From Lentisphaerota bacterium (GTDB taxonomy: Bacteria > Verrucomicrobiota > Kiritimatiellia > UBA8416 > VGWJ01), in assembly GCA_016873635.1 (NCBI GenBank), contig VGWJ01000006.1:3102-67101 (forward strand): DNA of 64,000 nucleotides, in the 5' to 3' direction. The position numbers and the translations under genes were made by a program. Shown in pieces: positions 3,001 to 46,021 of this stretch. Within the stretch, counting starts at the first letter, position 1; each line of letters begins with the position of its first letter. A model generated the notes under the pieces. That model saw nothing but the letters and a program-made list of their open reading frames with translations, did not search any database and was not told the DNA's origin.

Positions 3001-4013
3001 TTGGACGCCGTTTCCTGCGCCGAGCGTTCGAGTTCCGCGATCCGGTCGCGCATGGAGGTGAAGCGCGACTCCGTCTCCACCGCCATTCGCTCGCGGCCGG
3101 AGCCCATCGTCTCGATCTCGCGGCGCGCGGCAAGGAGGGCCTGCGTGGCCTGGTCGGCGTTCCGCCGGAGGGTATCGATTTCGCGGCGCAGCTCGTTCTC
3201 GCGTGTCCGGCTGCGTTCCTGCGCCTGCAAGCCGCTGGCCCGCTCGTCGCGCAGGGCTTTGCGGGCGCGGTCCAGGCGCGCGGCCGCGTCGGCCGCGCGG
3301 GACGCGAGGTCGTCGGCGGCGCGGCTCAGTCCGGCGAGTCGCTCGCCGTCGCCGCGTTTCGCGGCCGCCTGCTGCGCGCGTTCGGCCGCCAGGCGCTCGC
3401 GCGTCTGATCCAGCTCCTTCTCCATGGCGGCGGCGCCGGAGGAGATATCCTGGATGCGGCGCTGCAGGTCATGCTCGCGCGTGCGGCTCTCGGTCTGCAG
3501 CGCGTCAAGCCGTCGCGCGCGTTCCTGGAGGTCCTTCTCCGTCTCGCGCAGGCGGCCGGCCGCCTCGGCGGCCTGTCTTTCCAGCTCCGTCATCCTTTCG
3601 AGATTCTTCTTCAGCGCGGCCATGTCCTCGCCGGCGGGCGCCACGCCGAGAATGACCGCCTTCCGGGCGCCGACGGTGGTTTGCTCGCCGGTTTCCGCGT
3701 TGCGCAGGGGCGCGTCTTCGGTGATGGTCCCTTCCACCACGAGGTCGGCCAGGGCGCGGATGTTAAGCGGGCCGTACGGGGTTCCGTCGGCCAGGGTGAC
3801 CGTCCAGACCATGCGGAGTTCCCTGAGGTTTTCGACGGGAACCCACTTGCGATTGTCGGCGGAAACCTCGTTTCCGGGCGCAATGCGGCCCTGCTCGGCC
3901 CAGGCGATGAGGTCTTTGAGAGGGGCGGGTCCGAACACGGAACCGTCGTCGATCTTGAGGTACCACTGGTCGGCCGGGCCGGCCTTGTCTGTCGGTTTCA
4001 CTGGTTCGGGCAT
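1..4013 (-). CDS. Large coiled-coil protein, C-terminus beyond window. N-terminus has two tandem GYF-like/DUF4339 domains (WYLKIDDGSVFGPAPLKDLIAWAEQGRI... and MVWTVTLADGTPYGPLNIRALADLV...), followed by >1200 aa of E/R/A/Q/L-rich heptad-like coiled coil.
   Basis: I translated the reverse complement myself. It is open from the ATG at 4013..4011 (MPEPVKPTDKAGPADQWYLK...) through position 1 with no stop, and the composition is a typical coiled coil. The same-register + ORF 18..4073 is >30% Leu with almost no E/K, so it is the antisense shadow. The gene is absent from the ORF track, presumably because it has no stop inside the window. Confidence 0.7.
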   Translation of the reverse strand, partial: MPEPVKPTDKAGPADQWYLKIDDGSVFGPAPLKDLIAWAEQGRIAPGNEVSADNRKWVPVENLRELRMVWTVTLADGTPYGPLNIRALADLVVEGTITEDAPLRNAETGEQTTVGARKAVILGVAPAGEDMAALKKNLERMTELERQAAEAAGRLRETEKDLQERARRLDALQTESRTREHDLQRRIQDISSGAAAMEKELDQTRERLAAERAQQAAAKRGDGERLAGLSRAADDLASRAADAAARLDRARKALRDERASGLQAQERSRTRENELRREIDTLRRNADQATQALLAARREIETMGSGRERMAVETESRFTSMRDRIAELERSAQETASKLTEAERQSTARAAQIEQLNRALAGSKDDLSGIRKQIEDEKNRAEAQARDLNARIEQLNAALADATKEREDARAQLETEKNRAEAQARDLNARIEELDRALAGTVEDLSATRGRLEAERADAEAQARDLSARIEQLKAALAGATEELNRARAELEAERARTESQARETETRVGDMKRQASELERKATEAAARLRAAEEDLQRRITEFARIRNESHAREQGLREVIRDMRQAAGRALEEVAGARAHAAALRAASDADAKRDEERRGDLAGRLDGLQAQGQRAAKALDGLRADLRDERARYDVILQRSSELEAERLTHTEHIKHVLAEEVERLGADLDREREAFEGLRRTFAEREKAFQDRILDLQGLVGTDFEEHRKLYERRKAALEKIGELEAELDLARRERDDAMAIGSEKEGELGARLRALAADRDQRAARAAALERELGQERAVVAELKERAQKTDNELAQRLDQVQDECRELTRRLGDRELELEEMTKLRDDAREELRRREEDLAEQRAAAEQAAQEGRARDAAAESRIDELQRRCAETTARLDQIEWDSRQRESSLSDEIEGLRNEKTYLEEQLEEGRKTVQELHLALDQERRELTRLTELYASAEENVQTREKALNEHVARLQREREDMQAQLGRARAELDEQKTLSAELDKTSTEQERLARHRLEQAEQKLQSLQAEIDGARQQAARQTEAAEALRAQLAERQAEAENRIAQAQADYRALQENLAQRAERVEASEALLRQKDQELAELRKLYETAQQELTRREDDFQKAMEQTQERYRALNVKVDEDRRIFQTERTRAQQQADELGRQRKLFDEEQKLRRKREQELAQARRQIEEERERIAQREDAVTSARTQVEDEAQRRQTAEEKLAAYEKALRDAQDRYDQLRREFDQERAMASETRQRGEQERADFAARLSQLQDEHRGVALSLEEATQELEQQRSMAEEERARNRQREDELALQVEQLRQEQLSLSEEQERATQELDQRRILHEDEQE
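2581..2970 (-). repeat. Intragenic direct tandem repeats, 3-4 copies with a ~117-120 bp period, inside the coiled-coil gene. They encode repeated ~39-aa units (...KNRAEAQARDLNARIEQLNAALA...).
   Basis: Near-identical DNA blocks containing gagctgttcgatgcgggcg(c/t)tgaggtcgcgggcctgcgcttcggcg at ~2581, ~2698, ~2812 and a partial one at ~2929. Confidence 0.6.
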
Positions 4014-4097
4014 GCCACACCTCGTTGTTGCGAGCGTCTGCGCCACGGCGCCGGGGGCGGAGGGCCGTCATGATTCCGCGCCACTCAAGTACACGGT

Positions 4098-7861: not shown

Positions 7862-8030
7862 CGAACAAGAAATCGATCCGCGCCCCTCGCGAGGAACGAA
7901 GGCCGGAATGAGAATTGCCGTCTCTGTGCTTGGCAGAAGCGCGCGCCGCGGCCTATATTCGCTGAAACGCCCGCGACGGGCAGAGGTGCGTTTGAGAACG
8001 GCACATACGCTGCGCAGACGGCCGCGACGG

Positions 8031-8861
8031 ATGGTCATCGTCCCGTTCGCGCTGGCCGCGTGCCTTTCGGCGGCCGCGGGGGAGGTGGACGTCGGGCTCG
8101 AGCTGGAATACGACGGCTATCTGCAGTGCGAGCCGGTGATGGTCTTCCTCAAGCTGCACAACGACACGGCCGCTCCGCTGGTGATCGCCCCTGACCCCGG
8201 CGCCGGCGCCGACACCGCCGCGGTCACCTTCGAGGTCAAACGCTACACGCGCAACAGGACCGTGGATATCAAGCCGTCCGGCGCGGCGCCGGTGGTGAAA
8301 CGCGTCACGGTGCATCCCAACGGCGACCAGGAAATCCTGGCGGACATTTCCATGTTTTACGGGCTGGCAACGCTCGGGCGCTACAGCGTAACGGCCCGCG
8401 TGGAGTGGTTCGGCCGCCGCTACCAGTCGCCGGTGCGGAGCTTCGAGGTGGTGCGCGGGATCGACGTCGCGCACGCCGCGCGCACGGTGCCGGAATACCC
8501 GGATCGCCTGCGCGAATATGACCTGCGCTACTGGACGCGCCGCGGCGCGGAATATCTGTTTCTGACGGTTTCCGAAGAAGACGGGAAGATCAACTGCGGC
8601 GTGTTCCCGCTGGGCCGCATCGTGCGCATGGGCAAGCCCGTTTTGCGCGTCGACCGCGACGGCAACGTGGTCGTCGTGCACCAGTCCGGCCGGAACTGCC
8701 TGACGCGCTCGGCGTTCACCTCCACGCGGGAGGGGGTGCGGTTCGTGGACCAGACTTATCACCTGCCGGACGGCGGGCCCTATCCGTTCGTGCGCGGCGC
8801 GGAAGGCGTTCCCGCCGGCGGCACCAACGGGGCGTCCGCCAAGCCCCCGGCCGGCGGGTGA
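8031..8861 (+). CDS. Hypothetical secreted protein with N-terminal signal peptide (MVIVPFALAACLSAAAG).
   Basis: Internal ATG at 8031 of ORF 7797..8861. Product has diverse, non-low-complexity composition and is divergent from dnaE. Confidence 0.55.
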   Translation: MVIVPFALAACLSAAAGEVDVGLELEYDGYLQCEPVMVFLKLHNDTAAPLVIAPDPGAGADTAAVTFEVKRYTRNRTVDIKPSGAAPVVKRVTVHPNGDQEILADISMFYGLATLGRYSVTARVEWFGRRYQSPVRSFEVVRGIDVAHAARTVPEYPDRLREYDLRYWTRRGAEYLFLTVSEEDGKINCGVFPLGRIVRMGKPVLRVDRDGNVVVVHQSGRNCLTRSAFTSTREGVRFVDQTYHLPDGGPYPFVRGAEGVPAGGTNGASAKPPAGG

Positions 8862-9032
8862 GAGGCGGCGCCTTCGGCCCGGTCAGGTTTTGCCTGCCGA
8901 TTCTCAGGCGCGTCCGCCCGCGCCCGGCTGCCGTCGCGCCGAAGCGGCGCCATGGCGCGGCGCGAAGGCGGAAGGTCGCGGGCCACCTCGCTTCTTCCCC
9001 TGCGAAACCGGCGGGCCGCCGGGTTCCGTAGT

Positions 9033-9202
9033 GGGTCAGTTACGCGGTGGAAACACGCCGGCAGGGCGCGGCGTGCCGCCTTCGCCCGGAGGCTCCGGCG
9101 CGCCAAGCCGGCCGCGCCGCGGCGGACCGGGCTTGCCCGCCATAGCCCGCAGGGCGACGGCGGGACGGTCCGCCCTACCTCGCCTCCCTGCATGACTGAC
9201 CG
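9033..9202. mobile_element. MITE-like GC-rich repeat, copy 1 (~170 bp), with imperfect terminal inverted repeats (GGTCAGTTACGCGGTG ... CTGCATGACTGACC). Carries a ~35-bp insertion relative to copy 2.
   Basis: Matches 17621..17757 at >90% identity over ~135 bp. Lies in the intergenic region just upstream of tRNA-Leu. The ends are inverted complements and there are internal near-palindromes (CCGGAGGCTCCGG). Confidence 0.5.
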
Positions 9203-9274
9203 GTTGCCGGGTTCCTTTCATTCCCGTTGACCGTCTGCCGGGCATGCACTATGCTTTCTTCGGATGGTGTAACC

Positions 9275-9359
9275 GTGCACCCGTGGTGAAACTGGTATAC
9301 ACGCAAGGTTCAGGTCCTTGTGGCCGCTAAGGCCGTGGGGGTTCGAATCCCTCCGGGTG
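9275..9359 (+). tRNA. tRNA-Leu, anticodon CAG. Class II tRNA with a long variable arm, 85 nt, CCA not encoded.
   Basis: Hand-folded: acceptor GCACCCG/CGGGTGC; 3-bp D-stem GTG/CAC with a GG-containing loop; anticodon stem CAAGG/CCTTG with loop TTCAGGT (U33, CAG, G37); variable arm GGCC-loop-GGCC; T-arm GGGGG-TTCGAAT-CCCTC. Confidence 0.8.
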
Positions 9360-9431
9360 CACCCGCCTCCGCCCCGGCGGCGGCTGTGGCGGACGGATCC
9401 GGCGCGTTGCCCGAAGCGGACGAGGTGTCTG

Positions 9432-10376
9432 ATGGCTTTCGGCGAAGGCAAGATCTGGTATGACGGCCGTTTCGTGGACTGGGCTGACGCCACGTGCCAC
9501 GTGATGAGCCACGCCCTGCATTACGGCTCGTCGGTCTTCGAGGGCATCCGCTGCTACGCCCGGCCGGCGGGGCCGGCCGTATTCCGGCTGGACGACCATC
9601 TCCGGCGCCTGTACGACTCGGCCAAGATCTACCGCATGGAAATCCCGTTCGGCCTGGCGCAGCTGCGCCAGGCCGTCCTGGACACCGTGCGCGTCAACGG
9701 CCTGTCTTCCTGCTACATCCGGCCGCTGGCGTTCCGCGGCATGAAGGCCATGGGGGTCAACCCCCTGACCTGTCCGGTGAAGTGCGTCATCGCGGCCTGG
9801 GACTGGGGGAAGTACCTGGGCGAGGATTCCATGGTCGACGGCGTGTCGGTGCGCGTTTCGTCCTGGCGGCGCGCGGCGCCCGACACGTTCCCGGCGCTGG
9901 CCAAGGCCGGCGGGAACTACCTCAATTCGCAGCTGATCAAGATCGAGGCCACTCAGGACGGGTTCGACGAGGGCATCGCCCTGGACCACTACGGCTTTGT
10001 CTCGGAGGGCTCGGGCGAAAACATCTTCATGGTCCGCAACGGCGTGATATACACCCCGCCGTCCAGTTCCTCGATCCTGCCGGGCGTGACGCGGCACTGC
10101 GTGTTCACGCTGGCCCGCGAGATGGGCGTGCGCATCCACCAGCAGGTGATCCCGCGCGAGGCGCTGTATATCGCCGATGAGGTTTTCTTCTCGGGCACGG
10201 CCGCGGAGATCACGCCGGTGACGCGCATCGACAACATCGCCATCGGCGACGGCAGGCGCGGCCCGGTCACGGAGCGGATCCAGGGCGCGTTCTTCGAGAT
10301 CGTCGAGGGCGGCGCGGAAGACCGCCACAACTGGTTTACGCCCGTGGGCGCCGCCGCCCCGGGCGGCAAGGACTGA
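9432..10376 (+). CDS. ilvE: Branched-chain amino acid aminotransferase.
   Basis: Product MAFGEGKIWYDGRFVDW...; class IV aminotransferase motifs (ALHYGSSVFEGIRCY, SGTAAEITPV). Start is the internal ATG at 9432 of ORF 9318..10376. Confidence 0.9.
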   Translation: MAFGEGKIWYDGRFVDWADATCHVMSHALHYGSSVFEGIRCYARPAGPAVFRLDDHLRRLYDSAKIYRMEIPFGLAQLRQAVLDTVRVNGLSSCYIRPLAFRGMKAMGVNPLTCPVKCVIAAWDWGKYLGEDSMVDGVSVRVSSWRRAAPDTFPALAKAGGNYLNSQLIKIEATQDGFDEGIALDHYGFVSEGSGENIFMVRNGVIYTPPSSSSILPGVTRHCVFTLAREMGVRIHQQVIPREALYIADEVFFSGTAAEITPVTRIDNIAIGDGRRGPVTERIQGAFFEIVEGGAEDRHNWFTPVGAAAPGGKD

Positions 10377-10381
10377 CGGCC

Positions 10382-10888
10382 ATGCTGTGCGACGTGTGCA
10401 AGAAAAAGCCGGCCACGGTGCATTTCAAGGAGGCCTGCAACGGCCAGATCCGCGAGATGCACGTGTGCGAGGAGTGCGCCGTGCAGAGCGGGCTGGACGC
10501 GGGCGCGCCCGTTTCGCTGGCCGACCTGCTGTTCGGCGCGGCCGCCAAGCCGCCGCCGGAAAGCCTGCCGGACAAGTCGTGCCCCAACTGCCACATGCGG
10601 CAGCGCGACTTCTCCAAGACGTCGCGCCTGGGCTGCGCGCGGTGCTACGACGCGTTCCGCGAGGAAATGCGGCCGATGCTGGACGGCATGCAGAAAGGCC
10701 GGCAGCACGTCGGCAAGGTGCCGGCGCGGGTGCGCTGTGCGCAAAGCGCCGCGGTGCTGCGCCGGCGCCTGGACACGGCGGTGGCGGCGGAGAAATTCGA
10801 GGAGGCCGCGCACCTGCGCGACCGGATTGCGGAAAGCGAAGCGCGCGCGCGGCCGGCGCGCGGGCGAAACACGGCAGGCGTGGACTGA
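10382..10888 (+). CDS. mcsA: McsA-like activator of protein arginine kinase (N-terminal zinc-finger Cys pairs plus C-terminal UVR-like motif).
   Basis: CDVCKKK...CEEC...CPNC...CARC cysteine pairs and a ...AAEKFEEAAHLRDRI UVR motif. Sits immediately upstream of mcsB. Confidence 0.8.
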   Translation: MLCDVCKKKPATVHFKEACNGQIREMHVCEECAVQSGLDAGAPVSLADLLFGAAAKPPPESLPDKSCPNCHMRQRDFSKTSRLGCARCYDAFREEMRPMLDGMQKGRQHVGKVPARVRCAQSAAVLRRRLDTAVAAEKFEEAAHLRDRIAESEARARPARGRNTAGVD

Positions 10889-35365: not shown

Positions 35366-36562
35366 ATGGCGATTTTGTCGAAACGCATCCTGGCCGACGT
35401 GCGCCACGAGTATCACCGGCGTTTCGGGCTGCGTCCGCGGCTGATGGATTTCGCCGGGCGGACCGGCGGCGCCGCCGACCCGCTTGACGCTCTGGCCGGA
35501 GTGCGCCGGCGGCGCGACTACGCCCTGCAGCAGAGCATCGGCGAGGGGCGCGCCTTCGTTTACGAGGCGGCGCCCGGCGTGGCCGCCTGGGTTCTGGGGC
35601 TTGAGGACCGGCGCATGGTGCACGGCGGCCTGCTCGCCGGCGAGGTGCGGGCGGGTGCGGACGGGGAAGCCCCGGCGTGCCTGGCGCGGATGGGCATGGG
35701 CCGTCGCGAGGCCGAGCGTTTTGTGGCGCGGCTGCCCAGGTGGCCGGCGCAGCGCGTGACCGAGGCGGCGGACGCGCTCTACGAGGTCTTCTACGCCGTG
35801 AGCGGCTGGACGCCGGCGCTGTTGCGGGAGAACCGTTTGCGCGTCATGCAGGAGCGCCAGATCCAGGAGGCCGCGGAAGACCAGCGGCGGCGCGGGGGCC
35901 AGGCGTTGTATGCCTTCGAAAAGGAGCGCATGCTGCTGGCGAACATCAGGGCCGGCGACCGCAACGGCGCGCGACGGATCCTGAACGACATGCTGGCCGC
36001 GATCTACCTGTCGTCGCCGAAACTGGTGGTGCTGCGGGCGCGCGCCGTGGAACTGATGAGCTGTCTTACGCGCGCGGCGATAGAGGACAACCAGTTGCTG
36101 GAGCCGCTCATCGACCGCAACCACGCCTGGACCGAGCGGCTGGTGCACGCCGGGAGCTTCGAGGATCTGTCGGTGCAGTTGATGGACGCGCTCGATGAGT
36201 TCATCGACGGCATCTACCTGCACGGCATGAACCGCTCCAACGAAAAGGTGCGGGCGGCGCTGGACCTGATCGGGCGGGGATACGCCGGGCGCATCAGCCT
36301 GCGCACGGTGGCCGCGGGCGTGGGGTTGAGCCCGGTGCGCCTGTCACACCTCGTGAAGGCCTTGACGGGTCGCACCGTCGGCCAGGTGATCCGGGAAGTG
36401 CGCGTCAGGCATGCCCAGCAGATGCTGGAGCGCACGTCCAGAAGCTGCGCCGAGATTGGCTACGAAGCGGGCTTCGGCGATCAAAGCTACTTCATCAAAC
36501 ACTTCAAGCGGCTGACCGGCGTGACGCCGGCCCGCTACCGGCGCCGCCTGCAGGCCCCTTGA
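35366..36562 (+). CDS. AraC-family transcriptional regulator with an N-terminal ligand/sensing domain and C-terminal double HTH.
   Basis: C-terminal ...ISLRTVAAGVGLSPVRLSHLVKALTG...GFGDQSYFIKHFKRLTGVTPARYRR. Confidence 0.85.
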   Translation: MAILSKRILADVRHEYHRRFGLRPRLMDFAGRTGGAADPLDALAGVRRRRDYALQQSIGEGRAFVYEAAPGVAAWVLGLEDRRMVHGGLLAGEVRAGADGEAPACLARMGMGRREAERFVARLPRWPAQRVTEAADALYEVFYAVSGWTPALLRENRLRVMQERQIQEAAEDQRRRGGQALYAFEKERMLLANIRAGDRNGARRILNDMLAAIYLSSPKLVVLRARAVELMSCLTRAAIEDNQLLEPLIDRNHAWTERLVHAGSFEDLSVQLMDALDEFIDGIYLHGMNRSNEKVRAALDLIGRGYAGRISLRTVAAGVGLSPVRLSHLVKALTGRTVGQVIREVRVRHAQQMLERTSRSCAEIGYEAGFGDQSYFIKHFKRLTGVTPARYRRRLQAP

Positions 36563-36750
36563 CCGCCGCTCACTTTTCCGCCCGAATCGCATTGCGCAAC
36601 GGACGGGATGGTGGAAATATGATTCCGCAGCAGGGCGCGGTCGGCCCTCGCCGGGCCGCAACCGTTCGACGGGCGCAATCAGCGCGCCTTGCGGGATTTT
36701 CGGGGCGCGGGCGGCGGAGACGCCGGGGCGGCGGAAAGGAACAAGGCAAC

Positions 36751-37185
36751 ATGAAGATCGAATGCCGGGTCGGTTTGTTCGCGGTTCTGCTGGGGCTGGC
36801 GAGCATGCATTGCCGGGGAGAGGGGGCGGGGGGCGGCGGCGTCGGCTGGGAGGAGATTGACAAGATCTACGGCTTCGGCAGCGAGAGAACCGAAGAGCAG
36901 AAGGCGGAGCTGTGGGGGCAGTACAAGGGGAAGAAGGTGCAATGGAAAGGCACCGTCACAAGCGTGTCCGAGACGTGGGGCAACCTTGCCGTGCAGGTCA
37001 GAATGAATCCGGCGACGCTTACCTCCGACGTGCTGATAATCCTGAAGGAGTCGGAAAGAGACAAGGCTTCGCGGCTGAAGGTGGGCACCTCGGCGACCTT
37101 CGAGGGCTTGCTTGACGCATGGGGCGCGGTGATTCCGATCAGCCTCGTTCAGGGCGAAATCCTGCAGTGGGATCTGCTGCTTTAG
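36751..37185 (+). CDS. Hypothetical secreted/lipoprotein (MKIECRVGLFAVLLGLASMHC).
   Basis: ATG at 36751 with GGAAAGGAACAAGG upstream. Signal peptide present. Confidence 0.5.
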   Translation: MKIECRVGLFAVLLGLASMHCRGEGAGGGGVGWEEIDKIYGFGSERTEEQKAELWGQYKGKKVQWKGTVTSVSETWGNLAVQVRMNPATLTSDVLIILKESERDKASRLKVGTSATFEGLLDAWGAVIPISLVQGEILQWDLLL

Positions 37186-38852
37186 AACTCCCGCCGGGCG
37201 AGGGAGCGCGCGGCCAGCCGCAGGGGGAGGGCCGTGGCGAGAGCGGTGAGCGCCAGCAGCCAGGCCGACGCGGCGGCGAGCCCGAGGCGGAAGTGGAAGG
37301 GCGTCAGGGATCCGACGGCCCGCCAGTGAAACAGCGCCCCGAACGGGACGATAGCCGCCAGCATGAAGGCCAGGCTGAGCACAAGGTTCAGCGTTCCCCC
37401 GAAGCCGGAGACGATGGCGGCGGGATTGGACTGGCGCAGATCCAGGAAGACCGCGCCCAGTCCGGTCGACAGCCCGCACACGGCCAGGGTTACGGCCGAA
37501 GCCAGGGCCACGGCCGTCACGCGGGCGACCCACGCGACGTGCAGCATGGCGCCCGACAGCATGGTCAGGCTCACGGTAACGGCGGTCAGGCCGAGCGCGG
37601 AGCTGAGGAATTTCGTCAGCAGGATGCGGCCCAGGCGCGCCGGGGAAAGGCCCACGACCCAGAAGGCCTGGCCTTCCAGGCTGAGCTGGGGATAGACGAA
37701 CCGCGAGCCGAGCGAGCACATGACGGCCGACACGCTGAACACGTTGAGCAGCGAGATGGCGCTGCGCCAGACGTCAGGCAGCACGTGGTAGCGGAATGTC
37801 CGCAGGTTGGCGAAATACAGCGCCAGCAGGCCGAAGAAGATCAGCGCCTGCGACCACTGCAGGGGGTCGCGCAGGAATGACCGCAGATCCTTCGCCAGGA
37901 CGCCCCGGACGTCGCCGGGCAGGAAAGCCAGCCGGCGGCTGATGCCGTTCAGCAGGAAGGGGGCGTGCCGGGCGGAGGCGCCGCCGGCGGACCGTTCCCA
38001 CGCGGGATAGAAGAGCCGCCCGCCCAGCCATTCCACGAGCACCACGCCCAGGCAGGCCCAGGAAACCAGGGTGGCCAGCAGCAGCGCTCCGCGCGCGAGG
38101 CCACCCCGGGCCATGGTCAGGATGCCCTCCGCGATCCACCAGTTCGGCAGCAGGGGGTTGGAGGCCGCGGTGAAACCGGGCACGAGGCGCGTCAGGGCGA
38201 AGGTGGTATGCCCGGCGCCCAGCAGAACCGGGATGCTCGAGCGCCAGCGCCACAGGATAAAGGCCGCGGCGGCGATCACGGCCGCGGCGCACCACTGCAG
38301 CAGGCGGGCGCGCGGGAACCAGCGCACCAGCAGGAACGTGAACAGCGCGCCGACGGCGGAGCACAGCACCAGGAAAGGCGCCGAAAACACGAAAGCCCAC
38401 AGCGCGAAGAGCAAACTCATGCGCTGGTGCACCGCGTAGGCGCCGGCGAAGGGAATGACAATGATGAAGAAGGCCCAGGAAGAAAAAGCGGTCGACTCCA
38501 GGAACTTGTAGACGGTGATGGCGGACATGCGGAAGGGATGCACCAGCAGAAAGGGAATCTCCTCGGAGCGGAAGATCGTGGAATAGGCCGACACGACGCC
38601 CGACACGGCAAGCATGGCGCCCATGCCCAGGAAGAACACGCCGAACAGGCGGTCGATCAGGATGCCGCCGGCCCCGCCGATCTTGGCGAAGAACCGGAAA
38701 CCGTCCAGGAAAAGGAAAAACAGGCCGGATTCCATCAGCAGGGCGAACAGCAGGATGAACCAGAACTTGAGCGACGACTGCTCGCGCAGGATACGGCCGA
38801 GGTTGACGGCCGAGCGGCGGCACTTGAAGACGAGGGCGCTTCGGGCGCTCAT
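37182..38852 (-). CDS. Large ABC-2-type transporter permease (556 aa, >10 TM).
   Basis: Hydrophobic multi-TM composition. Start overlaps the upstream ATPase gene's stop. Confidence 0.8.
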   Translation of the reverse strand: MSARSALVFKCRRSAVNLGRILREQSSLKFWFILLFALLMESGLFFLFLDGFRFFAKIGGAGGILIDRLFGVFFLGMGAMLAVSGVVSAYSTIFRSEEIPFLLVHPFRMSAITVYKFLESTAFSSWAFFIIVIPFAGAYAVHQRMSLLFALWAFVFSAPFLVLCSAVGALFTFLLVRWFPRARLLQWCAAAVIAAAAFILWRWRSSIPVLLGAGHTTFALTRLVPGFTAASNPLLPNWWIAEGILTMARGGLARGALLLATLVSWACLGVVLVEWLGGRLFYPAWERSAGGASARHAPFLLNGISRRLAFLPGDVRGVLAKDLRSFLRDPLQWSQALIFFGLLALYFANLRTFRYHVLPDVWRSAISLLNVFSVSAVMCSLGSRFVYPQLSLEGQAFWVVGLSPARLGRILLTKFLSSALGLTAVTVSLTMLSGAMLHVAWVARVTAVALASAVTLAVCGLSTGLGAVFLDLRQSNPAAIVSGFGGTLNLVLSLAFMLAAIVPFGALFHWRAVGSLTPFHFRLGLAAASAWLLALTALATALPLRLAARSLARREF

Positions 38853-39604
38853 GCCCGCGGCTCCCCCCCGGCGGCCGACTTCTCGTCCTCGGCCGTCAGG
38901 TGCAGGAACGATTCCTCGAGGTTGCGCTTGCCGCCGGCCCGCACGGAGAGCTCGGAGAGCGTGCCGAGGGCGATCAGCCTGCCCCGCGAGACGATGCCGA
39001 TGCGGTCGGCCACGTCCTCCGCGAGCGACAGGATGTGCGTCGTGAGCATGATCGTGACGCCGTCGCGCGCCTTGCGCAGGAGCATGTCCTTGATGAGGCG
39101 GATCGTGTGCGGGTCGAGCCCCACGAGCGGCTCGTCGATGAAGAGCACCCGGGGATCGTGCAGGAAGGTGCAGGCGTAGATGAGGCGTTGCTTCATGCCG
39201 TGCGAGAGCTCCTTGATCAGCGCGGAACGGTAGTCCAGCAGGCCGAAGAGGGCGAAGGTTTCGCGCATGGCGCGGCGCACTTCGTCGCGCGGAAGATCGT
39301 ACAGGTCGCCGATGAACTCGAAAAACTCGCCCGGGGTGAGGCGGTCGTACAGGTAGGGCATGTCGGGGATATAGCCGATCAGGCGCTTGACCGCCTCCGG
39401 TTCGCGCTGGATGTCATGGCCGCCGATGAGCGCGCAGCCGGAAGTGGGGCGCAGGAGCCCGACGAGAATCTTCATGGTCGTGGTCTTGCCGGCGCCGTTG
39501 GGTCCGAGCAGGCAGAAGAGCTCGCCGCGGGGCACGCTGAGATCGAGGTCGCGCACGGCGTGCGTGCGCCCGAAGCGCTTGTTCAGTCCGCGGATTTCTA
39601 TCAT
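38849..39604 (-). CDS. ABC transporter ATP-binding protein (ABC-2 subfamily).
   Basis: Walker A GPNGAGKTT, signature LSHGMKQRL, Walker B LFIDEP. Confidence 0.9.
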   Translation of the reverse strand: MIEIRGLNKRFGRTHAVRDLDLSVPRGELFCLLGPNGAGKTTTMKILVGLLRPTSGCALIGGHDIQREPEAVKRLIGYIPDMPYLYDRLTPGEFFEFIGDLYDLPRDEVRRAMRETFALFGLLDYRSALIKELSHGMKQRLIYACTFLHDPRVLFIDEPLVGLDPHTIRLIKDMLLRKARDGVTIMLTTHILSLAEDVADRIGIVSRGRLIALGTLSELSVRAGGKRNLEESFLHLTAEDEKSAAGGEPRA

Positions 39605-39605
39605 C

Positions 39606-40454
39606 TCATGACTCCGGCGCCAGCAGGCGCCCGGTTATGATTTCGAGGAGTTCCACGCCCTTGCCCGTGCCCGCCGCCGCCGCCAGGGCTTCCTCCCGCG
39701 TGCACTTTTCCGCCACCCAGCCCAGCGGCGATTCCTGCCGGAGGATGTTGCCCTTCGCGTCGATCCAGGTGCGGAACTGCATGCCCTGGTAGGCGGCGGA
39801 GAGGACGGTGGCCTCGACCGGACCTTCGGGCCCGGCGACGCGTTCCACGCCGACCGCCTTGACGCGCACGGCGGTCTTCTTCAGCGTGAGGGGGTCGAGG
39901 GCCGCGAGCGACATCTCCTGCCCCGGACGCAGCCGCCTCAGCGCCAGGAAGGCGGTCGGAGAGTGGATGACGACGTCGTCGGGGATCTCGACGCGCATGT
40001 TCCGGATCTCGCCGCCCGTGTCGAGGGTGACGTCGAAGATGGCGCCCTCGGCGCGGCGGCCGCTGACGGCGACCCGCAGCGCCCCGGCGGTGAGGTTGAA
40101 CGCGAATTTCCGAAGGCGGTAGGCGGCGTCAAGGGCGGCCGTGCCCGCGGCGTAGAAGCTCTGCGGCTGTCCCATGAGCGTGACGTTCAGATCGGTGCGA
40201 TTGCTGAGCAGGTAGGAGTCCTCTCCGCCGTCGTCCGCGGTGTCGATGCCGGTGTGCGTATAGCCGACGTCCCTTCCGCCGTACTTGACTTTCATCCAGG
40301 AGTCCGACACGAGGACGTCCCGCCGCAGCAGCCGGGAGTAGCCGCGGATGGAACTGGTGAACAGCTCGGGAAAAGCCTCGTAGCGGACGAGCCACGAGGT
40401 CGTGGCGGCGCAGAACAGAACGGCGGCCGCCCTGATGAGACCCAGTTTCACCGC
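39606..40454 (-). CDS. Hypothetical membrane-anchored protein (single N-terminal TM, ~260-aa extracytoplasmic domain).
   Basis: GTG at 40454 overlaps the upstream gene's TGA (GTGA coupling). Product has diverse composition. Confidence 0.55.
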   Translation of the reverse strand, partial: AVKLGLIRAAAVLFCAATTSWLVRYEAFPELFTSSIRGYSRLLRRDVLVSDSWMKVKYGGRDVGYTHTGIDTADDGGEDSYLLSNRTDLNVTLMGQPQSFYAAGTAALDAAYRLRKFAFNLTAGALRVAVSGRRAEGAIFDVTLDTGGEIRNMRVEIPDDVVIHSPTAFLALRRLRPGQEMSLAALDPLTLKKTAVRVKAVGVERVAGPEGPVEATVLSAAYQGMQFRTWIDAKGNILRQESPLGWVAEKCTREEALAAAAGTGKGVELLEIITGRLLAPES

Positions 40455-41662
40455 CGCGGTTCCATTTCGCGCAGCCTGGCGTCCAGCGCGGCAATCTGCG
40501 TCTGCAGATCGGCCGGGACGGCGTTGGCGGGAGGCGCGGCGTGCTGCCTGTTCCATTCCTCGAAGCTCTCCCGGGCGGCCCGGAGCCGGGCGGAGAGATC
40601 CGTCTCGCGGTGCTTCAGGAGGCGCAGCCGGTCGCCGTAGGTCATGCGCTCGGCGCCTTCCGCGGCATCGTACCTGGCGCGCAGGTCCTTGACCTCCGCG
40701 TTGAAGGCGCGCGCTTCCGCCCGCAGGCGCTCGAATTCCGCGCGGTGCGGGTTGCCGCGCAGGGCGGCGTCGCGCGCGGCGGTCTGCGCGTCGGCGATGC
40801 GGGCCTCGACCTCGGCCTTGCGGCGCACGAGGGCCTTTTCCTCTTCGCCGGCTTCGTCAAAAGATCCGCGCCGCACCACGAGATCGGCGGTCTTGAGCAC
40901 GAAGGGCGAGGGCAGGTCGGGCGTTCCGGAAAGGCCGGTGCACACCGCCACGTCGCCGGACGCGGAGGCCACGAGCCTGGCAATGGCCACCGTCGTACCG
41001 GCCGCGAGTTTGCCCCTGGGCTGGCCGCCGGTGTCGTAGGCCGTTGCCTGGGCGGACTTGACGATCCCCCAGCGCGTTTCGTCGGACCGGTACGAACCGT
41101 CCGGTGTTTTGCGGGCCGGGGCGGGCCGCGCGGCGCGGGCATGCGCCAGGGCGACCGGATTGCCGGGATGGCGCGCGCGCAGGCGGCCGGCCACCGGCGC
41201 GAGGCGCGCGCCGTCGCCCCGCAACTCGGCAAGGAGGGCCTCGTATCCCGACCAGCGGGTGAAGCGGAGCGTGCCGCGCGTGTCCACGCAGGTATTGATG
41301 AAGGCGCGGGCCGGCGTCTGGATCGTTTCGAGAAGTCCGGCGCCGCCGGTGAAAGGCGTGACCGCGCTCCGCGCCATTTCCTCGGCCATTTGCTCGGCCC
41401 CCCCGATGTCGCCGGCGCGCGCGAAGCAACGGATCAACTCGCATTCGAGATCCTGGCGCAGCCGGGGATGCGGCTCGGCCCAGGGACGGGCCTGTTCGAG
41501 GCGCGAGGCGGCTGCCTGCCAGCGGCCGGAAGCAAGCAACTCCCGGGCGCGGCGCAGGTCCTCCCGGGCGGCGGCGAACCTGGCGTACGGAACCGCAAAA
41601 AGGGTAAAGGCGCAGCCGAGCAGGGCGAGCAGGTAGTAGTGCACGGCGGCTTTGAACAGCAT
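40448..41662 (-). CDS. Hypothetical protein: N-terminal TM, TPR-like helical region, C-terminal coiled coil.
   Basis: ATG at 41662, 8 bp after the upstream gene's stop. C-terminal heptad-rich Ala/Arg/Glu region. Confidence 0.6.
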   Translation of the reverse strand: MLFKAAVHYYLLALLGCAFTLFAVPYARFAAAREDLRRARELLASGRWQAAASRLEQARPWAEPHPRLRQDLECELIRCFARAGDIGGAEQMAEEMARSAVTPFTGGAGLLETIQTPARAFINTCVDTRGTLRFTRWSGYEALLAELRGDGARLAPVAGRLRARHPGNPVALAHARAARPAPARKTPDGSYRSDETRWGIVKSAQATAYDTGGQPRGKLAAGTTVAIARLVASASGDVAVCTGLSGTPDLPSPFVLKTADLVVRRGSFDEAGEEEKALVRRKAEVEARIADAQTAARDAALRGNPHRAEFERLRAEARAFNAEVKDLRARYDAAEGAERMTYGDRLRLLKHRETDLSARLRAARESFEEWNRQHAAPPANAVPADLQTQIAALDARLREMEPRR

Positions 41663-41670
41663 GGATTACC

Positions 41671-43164
41671 TCAACGGCTGTCGCCGGGGGCGGGCTCGCG
41701 CCGATAGCTTCGCGCGGAGACCCTGTATTGCCGCTCCAGACGCGTGTTGGCCGCCTCCATCTGCTCCGCGTCCAGCACCAGGTCCACGGCTACCGTGCGC
41801 AGCGTGAGGGCCTTCAGCATCCCGTCTTCGCCGGCTATCTTGAACACGTCCCTCATGTTGCTCACCGGACGGCCGTTGACGCGCGTGACCACCATGTTGC
41901 CGAAATGCTGGTACCCGACATTGATGGGGTCGGGAAGAACCGCGGCCAGGATAACGATCCGGTCGCCGGGGCGCTCGGGGGCCAGGCGGCTCGTGAGATA
42001 GAGGCTGGTGAGCCGCGAATCCACGCGGTTCATCCACTCGGGCCCGTGGGACTGAAGGTAACGGCCGGTGAGCTCGCGCAGGAGCAGGCCGCCCTCGAGC
42101 AGGTACTCGGGCCGTTCGCGGGCCGTGTTCTCGGGGATCAGCGCGTCGTCGTCGGACCAGCGGGCCAGTCGGACATCGGCTTCCCGCTCGCGGCCGTCGC
42201 GCAGCAGGCGCACGGGGACCTTGTCGCCGGGCCGCCGGCGCCCCATGATCAGATAGGCCAGGTTGAGGCGTCCGTAGTCGGGGTCGTCGTAGAAGCCGAG
42301 GTTGTCGATGTCGCGGCCGTCCCAGCTCAGCACCACGTCGCCCGGACGCAGCGCTTCGGCGGCGCCGGTGCCGGGCAGGCAGGTCATGATCTGCACCCCG
42401 CGTCCGTCGTCGGGAGCGCGCAGGTAGGCGCGCTTGGCGGGGTCGACCAGCTCCTTCCAGACGAACCCGGCCCACGCCACGCCTTCGTACGGCTCGGTCT
42501 GCGCGTCGGCCACGAAACGCGCCAGCGTGTTGTGCGGCAGCATCGCGCCGATGCGATCCTGGCGGCTGTAGGCGATGAGCACGCCCGCCAGTTTGCCGCC
42601 GTGGAACACGGGCGCGCCGGCGCGGCCGACGTTCAGCTCGGTCAGCACGCTGAAGGTCAGCGCGCCGTGCGGCGCGTGGGGGAGATCCTTGACCGCGATC
42701 TGCACGACGCGGCCGTCGCCGCGCTGCGGGCGGCGCGTCTCGTCGAGCTGCACGATGGCGACCTGCGCGTCCGGGGGGATGGTCTCCGCCACCGGCACCG
42801 CCGTGAGTCCTCCGGCCGCGGGCGCGGCGGTGTCGAAGCGCAACAGGGCGCAATCCAGCCGGCAGTCCGCCATGACGAGGCGCGCGGCGATCTTCTCGCC
42901 GCGGCCCGCGCGGCGCAGCTCGACCAGCGTCTGGTTGCGCACGAGACTCTCCGTCGTGAAGACGAGGCCGTCGCCCACGACCACGCCGTAGCCTTCGCGC
43001 TGGTCGGGCTGGCGTTTCTGCCACGGCAGGAAAGGGTCGTATTCCTGGAAGGTGACGAGCACTTCCACAAGGCTGTCTTCAACCGCGGCCCGCGCGGGCA
43101 GGGCGCGGCCGGCGGCCGCGAGCGCCGCGGCGGCGACAAACAGGCTGAACGCGAAGCTTTTCAT
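41671..43164 (-). CDS. Catalytically inactive paralog of the upstream S1C protease (trypsin-like fold plus PDZ-like region; His to Ser and Ser to Ala substitutions).
   Basis: Aligns with its neighbour. TNAHIV is replaced by FTTESLV and GNSGGPV by GRAGAPV. Signal peptide MKSFAFSLFVAAAALAAAG. The ATG at 43164 overlaps the upstream stop (ATGA). Confidence 0.75.
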   Translation of the reverse strand: MKSFAFSLFVAAAALAAAGRALPARAAVEDSLVEVLVTFQEYDPFLPWQKRQPDQREGYGVVVGDGLVFTTESLVRNQTLVELRRAGRGEKIAARLVMADCRLDCALLRFDTAAPAAGGLTAVPVAETIPPDAQVAIVQLDETRRPQRGDGRVVQIAVKDLPHAPHGALTFSVLTELNVGRAGAPVFHGGKLAGVLIAYSRQDRIGAMLPHNTLARFVADAQTEPYEGVAWAGFVWKELVDPAKRAYLRAPDDGRGVQIMTCLPGTGAAEALRPGDVVLSWDGRDIDNLGFYDDPDYGRLNLAYLIMGRRRPGDKVPVRLLRDGREREADVRLARWSDDDALIPENTARERPEYLLEGGLLLRELTGRYLQSHGPEWMNRVDSRLTSLYLTSRLAPERPGDRIVILAAVLPDPINVGYQHFGNMVVTRVNGRPVSNMRDVFKIAGEDGMLKALTLRTVAVDLVLDAEQMEAANTRLERQYRVSARSYRREPAPGDSR

Positions 43165-44669
43165 TCGCCGAGATACGCGGGCGCGGGGACCGCGTAGGCC
43201 TCCATGATCCGCGGGGCGGCGGCGGCGGCCGCTTCCGCGCCGATGATCAGCTCGTCTTCCATGCCCTCGAAACGGATCACGTGGAATCCGCCCGCCGGCG
43301 ACGCCAGGGCGCCGTTGAACTCGCGCAGATTGCGCACGCGCGTCCCGTTGACCGTCCCGACCACGCCGTACAGGAAACTTTCGCTGTAGGTGTTGACCGG
43401 ATGCGGCAGCCGGCGTGTAAGGACCACGAACTCGTCGCGGCCTTCGCACAGGCCGTCGATCTTGGCGTAGGTGAGGAAATACAGCAGGCGCCGCGCATTG
43501 GTCTCGGACGTGGAAGACTTGATCGTTTCGAGATAGTTGCGCGAGAGGGGCGCGAACACCAGTCCGGCCAAAATCGCGTAGGGCGGACGCTCGTCGTAGA
43601 TGCGGCGGTAGCCAAAGGGGTCCGCGGGACCGGTGAGCGGCACGCTCACGCTCTGCGCGCTTCCCTTGCGCCAGACCTTCAGATCGATCGCTTCGCCCCA
43701 CTGCTTGCGCTCGAGCAGTTCCGCGAAAAGCACGCCGTTGCCGTCGAGCCGGATGGTGCCGTCGTCCGCGATATCGTGGCCGTCGATCGCGAGCAGCACG
43801 TCGCCCTCTTCCAGGCGTCCCGCGCCGCAGCCGAACGGGTCCAGGTAGTGCACCGCCACGCCCGACCGGGAATCCGGCAGGCCGAGGGCGCGGCGGAGGG
43901 CGGCGTTGCGCAGTTCGAGCGTCGCGGCGCCGAGCTCCTGGTAGCCGTGGTACGCGCCGTCGGCGATGTCGTCGAGGAAGCGCCGGATCACGGGCACGGG
44001 GATGGCGTAGCCGATGTTCTCCGCCCACGCCAGTCCCTGGAAGGCCAGGCCGACGACGCGTCCTCTGAAAAGCACCGGCCCGCCGCTGTTGCCGGGATTG
44101 ATCGCGGCGTCGACCTGCAGCACGAGGTGATGATCGACGCCGCTGTGGGAGTAGACGCTGTAGTCGATGCGCGAGACCACGCCCCGGGTCAGCGAAAGCC
44201 GGTCGCCCCCCATGGGGTAGCCCAGCACGGTGACCGTGTCGCTCAGGCGCGGCAGGGCGCCGGCGAGTTCCAGCGAGGTCGTGCCTTCGAAGAAGGAGGG
44301 GTCGGCGACTTCCAGCGTGGCGAGGTCGCAGTCGTGGCCGGCGAAACGGACGGCGGCGTCATAGCGCCGCGGATCGCCGTCCTTCTGGATCTGGATGAAG
44401 CGGGCATTGGAGACGATGTGGGCGTTGGTCAGGATGCGGCGCCTGCCGATGATGAAGCCGGTGCCGGTGCCGTTCATCATGCGGCCGCCCTGCCAGGGCA
44501 GGCTGTAGTCGTCCTCCTGCTTCGTGACGTGGATCTTCACGACCGAGCGGCGCGCGGTCTGAAAGGGCACCGCCAGCCCCGCGGTGGCCGTGTCGGCGGC
44601 CGCGAGCGCGAGGGCGAGGGCGAGGGCGAAGGCCGGGTTGACCGTTGACTTCATCATGCGAAGAGGCAT
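43161..44669 (-). CDS. S1C-family (DegP/HtrA-like) serine protease with PDZ domain and signal peptide.
   Basis: Catalytic-triad motifs TNAHIV, D, GNSGGPV. N-terminal MMKSTVNPAFALALALALAAA. Confidence 0.85.
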   Translation of the reverse strand: MPLRMMKSTVNPAFALALALALAAADTATAGLAVPFQTARRSVVKIHVTKQEDDYSLPWQGGRMMNGTGTGFIIGRRRILTNAHIVSNARFIQIQKDGDPRRYDAAVRFAGHDCDLATLEVADPSFFEGTTSLELAGALPRLSDTVTVLGYPMGGDRLSLTRGVVSRIDYSVYSHSGVDHHLVLQVDAAINPGNSGGPVLFRGRVVGLAFQGLAWAENIGYAIPVPVIRRFLDDIADGAYHGYQELGAATLELRNAALRRALGLPDSRSGVAVHYLDPFGCGAGRLEEGDVLLAIDGHDIADDGTIRLDGNGVLFAELLERKQWGEAIDLKVWRKGSAQSVSVPLTGPADPFGYRRIYDERPPYAILAGLVFAPLSRNYLETIKSSTSETNARRLLYFLTYAKIDGLCEGRDEFVVLTRRLPHPVNTYSESFLYGVVGTVNGTRVRNLREFNGALASPAGGFHVIRFEGMEDELIIGAEAAAAAAPRIMEAYAVPAPAYLGE

Positions 44670-44746
44670 AGTAGAACAGGCGAGGGGCCGGAAGCAATGC
44701 CGGAGTCGTTCGTTGTTGGCGGAGTCATTTGTGTGTCGGCCTTGAT

Positions 44747-44878
44747 ATGGGCCTGAGCGATCGAGACTACATGCGCCCGGAATCGCGCGCGGCGCGGCGC
44801 GGACGGCGGCCGTCCGTCATGGACCGGCTGAAGTTCATGCTGTGGCGATGGGTCCGGCGCCTGCGCGAGGGGCGGTAG
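44747..44878 (+). CDS. Possible small basic protein of 43 aa (MGLSDRDYMRPESRAARRGRRPSVMDRLKFMLWRWVRRLREGR).
   Basis: Intergenic ORF below the track cutoff. No clear RBS. Composition is plausible but unsupported. Confidence 0.2.
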   Translation: MGLSDRDYMRPESRAARRGRRPSVMDRLKFMLWRWVRRLREGR

Positions 44879-44971
44879 CCGGATTTGCTCCCACGCGGAG
44901 GCGCACAGGCGGACCGGAAGGGGGCGGCGGGCGGGGATGCGCGCGCCTTGAGTCGTGCCGTAAGGCGCTTC

Positions 44972-45496
44972 TCAGAGGCTCAGGTTGAGCCAGATGCCGA
45001 ACTCAAGGTCCTTGAGATCGAATTCGCGGAGCGCCCGGCCGTTCTCGAAGACGTAGAACACCATCAGGTCGAAGTCTACGTGCTTGACCGGCAGGTTGAT
45101 GCCCGCGATGAACTGCCAGTAGAAACCGGTCCAGGGGTCGGCGTTGTCGCCGCGGTCAATGTAGGAATTCAGCACGCCCGCTCCGCCGCGCCAGATTCCG
45201 TCGTTGAAGATCAGGTTGAGCTGCGGCGTGTACACGGCCTCGACGGCATTGCTTCCCGTGAACGCCGGCACGTAGTCGAGGGCCACCTGCCAGTAGCCGG
45301 CTTCCTCGTGCCACTGGTAGGCCGCGGCGGCCGAAAAATTGCCGGTAAAGGGAAGGGCCTCGAAAGCCGAGTGGTCCACGTGGTAGCGGGACCCGACCGC
45401 AACGGAGCTGGAGGACGCAGACGAGGCGACAGACGGCCGGGACGGCAGTGACGTCGCCACAAGCGCGGCGGCGGCGATGGTAGTGATGGTCTTCAT
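44972..45496 (-). CDS. Hypothetical secreted protein, possibly a small outer-membrane beta-barrel (alternating aromatic/hydrophobic pattern).
   Basis: Signal peptide MKTITTIAAAALVATSL. Tyr/Trp/Phe-rich beta-strand-like periodicity. Confidence 0.55.
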   Translation of the reverse strand: MKTITTIAAAALVATSLPSRPSVASSASSSSVAVGSRYHVDHSAFEALPFTGNFSAAAAYQWHEEAGYWQVALDYVPAFTGSNAVEAVYTPQLNLIFNDGIWRGGAGVLNSYIDRGDNADPWTGFYWQFIAGINLPVKHVDFDLMVFYVFENGRALREFDLKDLEFGIWLNLSL

Positions 45497-45589
45497 GGCG
45501 CCGATTGTAGGAGGCGGCGACATCAGTGCAAGGTTTAAAGCAATGGGTTCATAGCAATGGGTCAGAAGCTGTAAGTTCCTCCGGGCGCG

Positions 45590-46021
45590 CTACGGGTACT
45601 CGGCCTGGACGGAGATGGCGATGCCCCCGCGCGGGTTGAAGATGCCGCTGACGTGCGCCCGCCTCGGTTTGACGGCGCGGACAAGGTCGTCCAGCACGCG
45701 GTTCACGACTTCCTCGTGGAAAGCGCCGTGGCTGCGGAAGGAGAAGAGATAGAGCTTCAGGGATTTGCTTTCGAGGCAGAGCTTGTCCGGGATGTAGCGG
45801 ATGGTCAGGCGTCCGAAGTCGGGCTGTCCGGTAACCGGGCAGAGCGCGGTGAATTCCGGGCATTCGAAGGTTATCCAGTAGTCCCGGCCGGGATGCGTGT
45901 TGCGGAAGGCCTCCAGGCGCGCCCTGCCCGGCGAAGCCGGATACGGCTGCCGGCTTCGCCCCAGGAGCGTGAGCCCGGCGGTGCCGGCCCGCGCCGCGGA
46001 TTTCTTGCTTGCCTGCGACAT
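45590..46021 (-). CDS. queF: NADPH-dependent 7-cyano-7-deazaguanine reductase QueF (unimodular type).
   Basis: Motifs FECPEFTALCPVTGQPDFG and E..SLKLYL. ATG at 46021. Confidence 0.85.
   Translation of the reverse strand: MSQASKKSAARAGTAGLTLLGRSRQPYPASPGRARLEAFRNTHPGRDYWITFECPEFTALCPVTGQPDFGRLTIRYIPDKLCLESKSLKLYLFSFRSHGAFHEEVVNRVLDDLVRAVKPRRAHVSGIFNPRGGIAISVQAEYP

Follow-up and report, generated by a model that had tools for sequence, protein, structure and literature searches.

A triad-less HtrA paralogue encoded directly behind an active Deg2/Deg9-type protease in Lentisphaerota and related phyla, and its probable role as a non-catalytic partner

HtrA proteases are textbook homo-oligomers, and to our knowledge dedicated non-catalytic HtrA subunits have come to light in a few cases only, namely MamO next to MamE, the fused proteins DEG7 and Nma111 and, in the role of a scaffold, PflC. 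Here we describe two tandem genes of a Lentisphaerota bacterium (assembly GCA_016873635.1, contig VGWJ01000006.1, positions 3,102 to 67,101; these 64,000 nucleotides are referred to as the window). The upstream gene encodes an active Deg2/Deg9-type HtrA protease, and the downstream gene, at 41671-43164 on the minus strand, encodes a paralogue which has lost the catalytic triad and is called the dead paralogue or dead copy in the following. Both genes are found side by side throughout several phyla, and the dead protein probably assists its active neighbour as a subunit without catalytic function.

The dead HtrA-like protein MamO promotes MamE proteolysis, and pairs of active and inactive proteins of this kind have evolved repeatedly (PMC4794232). 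DEG7 and Nma111 are fused double HtrA proteins which arose by whole-gene duplication and whose reported occurrence is limited to plants, algae and fungi (PMC3194040; PMC3473262); in DEG7, the degenerate protease domain mediates trimerisation (PMC3194040). PflC of the flagellar motor of Campylobacter jejuni has a periplasmic HtrA fold with one protease and two PDZ domains, and serves as an oligomeric scaffold that lacks the triad (PMC12222027). In the Arabidopsis protease Deg2, the rigid protomer and the locked hexameric cage involve a Trp of loop LA (Trp134), which docks on the second PDZ domain, an internal PDZ-ligand Tyr and the (A/G)G turn that follows it (PMC3481350). A literature search of incomplete coverage returned no earlier description of the bacterial active/dead pair presented here.

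The two genes of the window lie in different frames and are joined by an ATGA overlap, in which the start codon of the dead paralogue (ATG, 43164-43162) overlaps the stop codon of the active gene (TGA, 43163-43161) within the sequence GGCGAATGAAAAGC; they are thus two polypeptides and not a single fused one of the DEG7/Nma111 type. The proteins are 27% identical over 474 amino acids (BLASTP, E 2e-29) and have the same Pfam layout, consisting of Trypsin_2, a canonical PDZ domain and PDZ_3. In detail, the active copy shows a hydrophobic signal-like N-terminal segment followed by the protease domain (Trypsin_2, E 1e-23), PDZ1 and PDZ2 (PDZ_3, E 2e-23), and the dead copy gives a weak match to Trypsin_2 (34 bits) in addition to PDZ_2 and PDZ_3 (85 bits, E 7e-24). 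When both proteins were scanned against NCBIfam, only matches of the DegP/MamE type below threshold and no equivalog were obtained.

In the alignment of the two proteins, TNAH84IV of the active copy stands opposite TTES73LV of the dead copy, replacing His by Ser, and GNS195GGP stands opposite GRA182GAP, replacing Ser by Ala. The Asp is retained (D115LATL and D104CALL), which requires an ungapped register that the family alignment supports. Taking the His-Asp-Ser triad as the mark of an HtrA/Deg enzyme (MEROPS S1C), the product of the upstream gene qualifies with H84, D115 and S195 and the dead paralogue does not. A previous reading of the window, made from the sequence alone and referred to here as the sequence-only reading, had already pointed out two tandem proteins with the His and Ser of the triad replaced in the downstream one; the boundaries it gave for this gene are exact, the BLASTP alignment agrees with it, and the retention of the Asp can now be added. 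The PDZ-like region that it saw in the dead copy corresponds to the PDZ_2 and PDZ_3 matches. It had also proposed that the signal peptide is retained. The N-terminus of the dead copy, MKSFAFSLFVAAAALAAAGRALPARA followed by AV, is indeed hydrophobic (mean Kyte-Doolittle value 2.4 over 12 residues) and fits this proposal; its sequence is not conserved, and in the AlphaFold2 model it forms a helix of low confidence. The signal peptide should be regarded as putative. Both N-termini are signal-peptide-like and fit an export of the two proteins to the periplasm.

An open reading frame (ORF) of 785 amino acids at 41671-44028 on the minus strand is spurious. It arises because the frame of the dead gene continues without a stop for 864 nucleotides upstream of the true start, across the 3' half of the active gene, in DNA of 70% G+C. 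The ATG at 43164 is taken as the true start since the family alignment and the homologues begin there. Database homologues of 530-660 amino acids (e.g. P0008, P0058 and P0065) may be similarly over-extended gene calls.

To compare related loci, a scan was seeded with an alignment of eight sequences and limited to one genome per species; it returned 80 loci, onto which six proteins of the window were mapped by tblastn. An active-type gene is found directly upstream of the dead-type gene and on the same strand in 79 of the 79 loci with upstream DNA, and the four loci without an upstream active-type gene are cut at a contig end. The H-D-S triad is present in all of the 75 upstream copies that could be read and in none of the 79 downstream copies; this split into kept and lost triads is far beyond chance. 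Stop and start codons overlap in 53 of 78 pairs (by 4 nucleotides in 46, by 1 in six and by 8 in one), and in 11 more of the 78 loci the genes are separated by a gap of 0-30 nucleotides. Conserved overlap together with an invariant gene order is the usual signature of subunits that are made together.

Two loci showed an unusual arrangement. In L067 (8007-9567), two overlapping ORFs (8007-8969 and 8806-9567) take the place of a continuous active-type gene, and the dead-type gene behind them is intact; this reflects either a frameshift error in this metagenome-assembled genome (MAG) or a genuinely disrupted active copy. An apparent active-dead fusion of 1100 amino acids in L051 (2209-5511) was rejected as an assembly artefact, as the stretch between the two halves contains XXXX (a series of N) and sequence that is out of frame.

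The dead protein is 100% identical to the database entry 'serine protease [Lentisphaerae bacterium]' (P0001), which comes from a Lentisphaerae MAG. It has 139 relatives (120 of them listed) with 41-60% identity from metagenome bins of Lentisphaerae, Kiritimatiellae and Verrucomicrobiota. A second protein search with a Verrucomicrobiales member as query yielded 728 further clusters at E <= 1e-10, nearly all of them named 'hypothetical protein', with precomputed Pfam assignments to PDZ_3, in some cases together with another PDZ family, and never to Trypsin_2. Cultured hosts were sought with the same Verrucomicrobiales query, and the best 120 matches were all derived from MAGs. According to the record names, the hosts belong to Victivallales/Lentisphaerae, Kiritimatiellia, Verrucomicrobiota (including Limisphaerales and Verrucomicrobiales), Auribacterota and Phycisphaerae. 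A few records (L063, L076, L078, L083 and P0182) are labelled Gemmatimonadales, Klebsiella sp., Proteobacteria or Haliangiales, at odds with a distribution otherwise restricted to the Planctomycetes-Verrucomicrobia-Chlamydiae (PVC) group; these are likely mis-binned or mislabelled MAGs.

Among the close relatives of the dead protein, the His column is occupied by Ser, Asn or Asp, the Asp column mostly by Asn and the Ser column mostly by Glu, and the new motifs TTE-x-LVRN and N-x-NGEGA are conserved at the former catalytic sites. A different pattern was observed in the branch comprising Verrucomicrobiota, Phycisphaerae and Auribacterota (L068-L083, with the dead-type gene at about 9001-10450 in most of them), which carries a Trp at the nucleophile position in motifs such as G[LV]GWAEP, TGWGEI or HWA[DE]P, and TTA[EQD] at the His motif. 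This TTA[EQD]/Trp pattern differs from the TTE-x-LVRN and NGEGA motifs of the Lentisphaerota/Kiritimatiellia branch.

All 79 dead copies fall into one clade of a neighbour-joining tree with 154 sequences, and there was therefore a single duplication before the divergence of these lineages. Mean identity is 0.50 among the active copies, 0.39 among the dead copies and 0.23 between the two groups. The sequence-only reading had called the active copy a twin of the dead one; this is too strong a term for proteins of 27% identity that go back to one old duplication predating the divergence of several PVC-group phyla. In the same genome pairs, the ratio of nonsynonymous to synonymous substitutions (dN/dS; Nei-Gojobori, dS < 1) lies at 0.05-0.17 for the dead gene and at 0.04-0.14 for the active one; purifying selection thus acts on the dead gene as strongly as on its partner. 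Mean column conservation in active versus dead copies is 0.71 versus 0.50 for the protease domain, 0.58 versus 0.54 for PDZ1 and 0.55 versus 0.57 for PDZ2. The constraint is thus relaxed locally, in the protease domain only and in neither of the PDZ domains.

Among the solved structures, both proteins are nearest by sequence to Arabidopsis Deg2 (4FLN) and Deg9 (5IL9), which are also the best matches in the Protein Data Bank (PDB) for the active copy (E 2e-78 for 4FLN). An AlphaFold2 model of the dead protein, calculated as a single chain and built on 40 relatives, reached a predicted local distance difference test (pLDDT) value of 93.8 and a predicted template modelling (pTM) score of 0.87. 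In a Foldseek comparison this model matched Deg2 (4FLN) and Deg9 (5IL9) with template modelling (TM) scores of 0.84-0.89 over about 467 columns, and DegP/DegQ with about 0.5. The structural modelling that the sequence-only reading had proposed as a check thus indicates that the HtrA fold is retained. The dead paralogue has the trypsin-like domain and at least one C-terminal PDZ domain that define the HtrA/Deg fold. It also has what is characteristic of Deg2 and Deg9, a PDZ2 of the PDZ_3 type bearing C-terminal helices, which the model places at residues 437-447 and 466-480, and the structural match includes PDZ2. The cages of the Deg2/Deg9 subfamily are hexamers or octamers.

The elements of the Deg2 cage have equivalents in both window proteins, i.e. 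P47-W48, Y354 and G358-G359 in the dead copy and LPW59 and Y364...A368-G369 in the active copy. Conservation of the loop-LA Trp, the ligand Tyr and the (A/G)G turn is 95-100% in either clade; P47-W48 reaches 99-100% and is invariant in the alignment of close relatives. As shown by sequence comparison and the predicted model, the dead paralogue has lost its catalytic chemistry and has kept the Deg2 fold, the assembly elements and the PDZ domains. The earlier claim of a dead S1C paralogue that is coupled to an active copy is therefore well founded, being backed by the ATGA overlap, the conserved gene order, the conserved loss of the triad, purifying selection and the retained fold.

Our reading of these data is that the gene at 41671-43164 probably encodes a periplasmic Deg2/Deg9-type HtrA pseudoprotease, an old tandem duplicate of the adjacent active gene which has been kept as its obligatory partner, a non-catalytic, co-assembling subunit. 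Translational coupling of the two genes would deliver the two proteins in fixed proportion, and these might co-assemble into a mixed Deg2-like oligomer, either as mixed trimers or as an active trimer stacked on a dead one. The part of the dead subunit would be to provide surfaces for oligomerisation and PDZ sites for peptide binding, by which it might gate or tune the access of the active subunits to unfolded envelope proteins. We infer the physical complex and its effect on activity from synteny, the stop/start coupling, the retained assembly elements and the precedents of MamO/MamE and DEG7. The suggestion of the sequence-only reading that the dead copy is a regulator or adaptor of its active partner fits the same lines of evidence, and should be understood with the same reservation. 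A more specific version, which we put forward tentatively and to which we give slightly less than even chances, is that PVC-group bacteria possess an obligate hetero-oligomeric Deg2-type cage of active and dead subunits from coupled genes, in which the dead subunit would be oligomerisation core and substrate gate, and which would be an independent, unfused counterpart of DEG7/Nma111. If this were true, bacteria would have made long and wide use of HtrA hetero-complexes with dedicated non-catalytic subunits, comparable to ClpP/ClpR, and such complexes would not be peculiar to magnetosomes and eukaryotic organelles.

Several points weigh against a co-assembling subunit. The mixed complex is a deduction, and the AlphaFold2 model is that of a single chain. 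A natural fusion of active and dead proteins was not found among the relatives, and neither protein search contained a match of about 1000 amino acids. The dead copy is more diverged than the active one in 99.6% of the locus pairs. The divergences of the two genes are correlated (r 0.97), for which shared phylogeny is a sufficient explanation. In addition, the residues that replace the triad vary by sub-clade (Glu, Gln, Val, Ala or Trp), hence there is no single conserved new chemistry at the former active site. Finally, operon membership alone would also fit a chaperone that acts separately.

Such a separate function, in which the dead paralogue alone would be a periplasmic PDZ-based holdase, chaperone or substrate-delivery adaptor that shares an operon with the protease and forms no stable mixed oligomer with it, is the most likely of the alternatives. 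HtrA proteins retain chaperone activity without the catalytic Ser. The dead clade has PDZ domains as conserved as those of the active clade next to a relaxed protease domain, and the lack of fusion proteins among the relatives also points in this direction, as does the chaperone-like activity of Deg2 itself (PMC3481350). We consider a lone chaperone rather unlikely all the same, since the strict order and adjacency in 79 of 79 loci from several phyla, with overlapping genes in two thirds of them, are more typical of the subunits of one complex, and since the loop-LA Trp, the internal ligand and the GG turn are elements of assembly rather than of client binding. It has also to be asked whether the former active site was re-tooled for a small ligand or a metal, as in MamO, which would give the protein a sensing or binding role with optional feedback on the protease. 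In the Lentisphaerota/Kiritimatiellia branch, Glu72 and Arg76, which flank Ser73 in the motif TTE-x-LVRN, do not vary among the 40 aligned close relatives, Asp100 is invariant as well and the Ser position is most often taken by Glu; other branches have a bulky Trp there, as reported for the L1 loop of MamO. However, these replacements are not clade-wide, TTE-x-LVRN being opposed to TTA[EQ]xxxD and the Ser position being occupied by E, Q, V, A or W, the window protein itself has Ala and not Glu at this position, and conserved metal motifs, di-His or other recognisable ones, are missing, which leaves this explanation with a low probability.

That the downstream protein is still a protease by means of alternative catalytic residues is highly improbable, even though Asp104 is retained in the window copy and a few relatives have a His at the His position, resulting in triads such as HDE or HNE. 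A His combined with a Ser nucleophile occurs in 0 of 79 relatives, and the GNSGG motif of the oxyanion hole is degenerate. The protease domain of the 79 dead-clade sequences contains no dead-specific conserved column of His, Ser or Cys; the only two columns in which Ser reaches at least 40% are outside the triad positions and are just as much Ser in the active clade. The other His and Ser residues in the protease domain of the window protein (H163, H166, H188, H211, S172 and S200) are not conserved in any case among the 40 close relatives. An alternative His or Ser in the catalytic positions, which the sequence-only reading had named as the observation that would speak against it, was thus sought and did not turn up. 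Least probable of all, with a chance that is practically nil, is the reading that the gene was inactivated recently and is turning into a pseudogene. Such a gene would be expected to evolve faster than its partner, as the dead copy does, but the full-length ORF, the confidently modelled fold, a dN/dS of about 0.1 and a monophyletic clade that extends over several phyla and hundreds of database clusters contradict it, and the reading is refuted by the triad pattern, the monophyly and the dN/dS. We maintain the obligatory, non-catalytic partner as our preferred reading.

The pair heads a tight array of six genes on the same strand (44669 to 37182, minus strand; Table 1). A homologue of the 404-amino-acid protein follows the pair in 30 of the 70 loci with enough downstream DNA, and the DUF3108-like protein, the ABC ATPase and the permease are all found downstream of the pair in 11 of the 47 loci with room for them. 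The same six-gene array exists in Kiritimatiellae and Victivallales loci (e.g. L001, L004, L013, L025 and L066) and not in Verrucomicrobiales loci, and in other loci the pair is followed by unrelated genes (L003). As the downstream genes are variable, the two-gene pair is the invariant unit; in the Lentisphaerota/Kiritimatiellia branch the transporter module is associated with it as an accessory. A promoter and terminator scan of 36500-45600 found no more sites than shuffled sequences did and was uninformative on the limits of the operon.

Table 1. Positions of the gene pair, its catalytic and structural elements and the neighbouring genes in the window
Feature	Positions	Strand	Basis or remark
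Active Deg2/Deg9-type HtrA protease, 502 amino acids	43161..44669	-	ORF, Pfam, PDB matches, orthologue triads
Dead paralogue, HtrA-fold pseudoprotease, 497 amino acids plus stop	41671..43164	-	Translation, BLASTP, Pfam, AlphaFold2
ATGA overlap of active-gene stop and dead-paralogue start	43161..43164	-	Sequence
Catalytic His84 codon (CAC), active copy, in TNAHIV	44418..44420	-	
Catalytic Asp115 codon (GAC), active copy, in DLATL	44325..44327	-	
Catalytic Ser195 codon (AGC), active copy, in GNSGGP	44085..44087	-	
Ser73 (AGT) at catalytic-His position, dead copy, in TTESLV	42946..42948	-	
Asp104 (GAT) at catalytic-Asp position, dead copy, in LDCALL	42853..42855	-	Asn in most family members
Ala182 (GCC) at nucleophile-Ser position, dead copy, in GRAGAP	42619..42621	-	Glu, Gln, Val, Trp or other in relatives
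Putative signal-peptide-like hydrophobic N-terminus, dead paralogue, residues 1-26, ending in ARA before AV	43087..43164	-	Predicted
Degenerate protease domain, dead paralogue, about residues 30-225	42490..43077	-	Trypsin_2 at residues 58-194, 34 bits; modelled beta-barrel
PDZ1, dead paralogue, about residues 235-335	42160..42462	-	Pfam PDZ_2 at residues 256-333, PDZ at residues 252-289
PDZ2, dead paralogue (Pfam PDZ_3, residues 343-484)	41713..42138	-	PDZ_3, E 7e-24
Pro47-Trp48 of loop LA, dead paralogue; Trp equivalent to Deg2 Trp134	43021..43026	-	
Tyr354 to Gly358-Gly359, dead paralogue; equivalents of the Deg2 internal PDZ ligand (Tyr440) and (A/G)G beta-turn	42088..42105	-	
404-amino-acid protein with N-terminal hydrophobic segment, weak TPR match	40448..41662	-	Starts 8 nucleotides after the dead-paralogue stop
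316-amino-acid protein, weak DUF3108 match, start uncertain	within 37182..40556	-	
ABC ATPase	38849-39604	-	
ABC_tran_2 permease	37182-38852	-	

Away from the pair, positions 1-4000 of the window show a very strong negative AT skew (-0.44 and -0.39), and the translation of the plus-strand ORF at 18-4073 is rich in Leu and Ala and looks like nonsense. This ORF is probably antisense to a long minus-strand gene which encodes a Glu/Lys/Gln-rich coiled-coil protein and runs off the window start.

In the databases, members of the dead clade go by the names 'hypothetical protein', 'PDZ domain-containing protein', 'serine protease' or 'S1-C subfamily serine protease', and none of these names flags the loss of the triad; for most of the listed relatives the precomputed Pfam assignment is PDZ_3 only. 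Our analysis therefore offers a correction of their annotation. Beyond this, it describes a fixed arrangement of an active and a dead HtrA protein which has been kept, including gene order and stop/start overlap, over several phyla and in hundreds of environmental genomes. The pair is a natural system in which to study what a dead subunit contributes to an HtrA cage, be it assembly, gating or substrate selection. As an independent replicate of the DEG7 solution, it also allows one to test whether degenerate protease domains generally become oligomerisation modules.

Of the known systems, Arabidopsis Deg2, Deg9 and Deg10 (structures 4FLN and 5IL9) share with the window proteins the succession of protease domain, PDZ1 and an unusual PDZ2 (PDZ_3), and provide their best matches in sequence and fold; the Trp of loop LA, the Tyr of the internal PDZ ligand and the (A/G)G turn are likewise common to Deg2, Deg9 and the pair. 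Deg2 and Deg9 occur as active homo-oligomers in plant organelles or the nucleus; the window pair differs in being bacterial and, by prediction, periplasmic, and in having one member without the triad. DEG7 and Nma111 (Ynm3) have the same order of an active protease-PDZ-PDZ unit followed by a degenerate one, joined in one fused polypeptide, whereas the window pair consists of two. Profile hidden Markov models (HMMs) of both window clades scored 258-461 bits on AtDEG10, AtDEG2 and AtDEG9, only 34 and 11 bits on the N-terminal half of AtDEG7 (11 for the dead clade) and gave no match on its C-terminal half. A relationship of the window pair to the DEG7/Nma111 fusion as ancestor or descendant was rejected on these grounds, and an origin independent of DEG7 is concluded from the preference of the clade profiles for DEG10, DEG2 and DEG9.

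MamO and MamE likewise represent a dead HtrA/trypsin-like protein that is encoded beside an active HtrA protein, and the bulky Trp reported in the L1 loop of MamO recalls the Trp that some members of the dead clade have in place of the nucleophile. They belong, however, to other HtrA branches and are tied to magnetosome islands, and MamO binds metal via a di-His motif. A search for a surface di-His site of this type found no dead-specific conserved His in the dead clade, and magnetosome genes are not among the neighbours of the window locus, which include an ABC transporter, QueF and others. PflC differs in that it has no adjacent active paralogue and builds a flagellar disk, and the window locus has no flagellar context. 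On the basis of these sequence comparisons, the pair is best described not as a new principle but as an independent and widespread instance of a known arrangement, an active HtrA protease with a dedicated dead paralogue.

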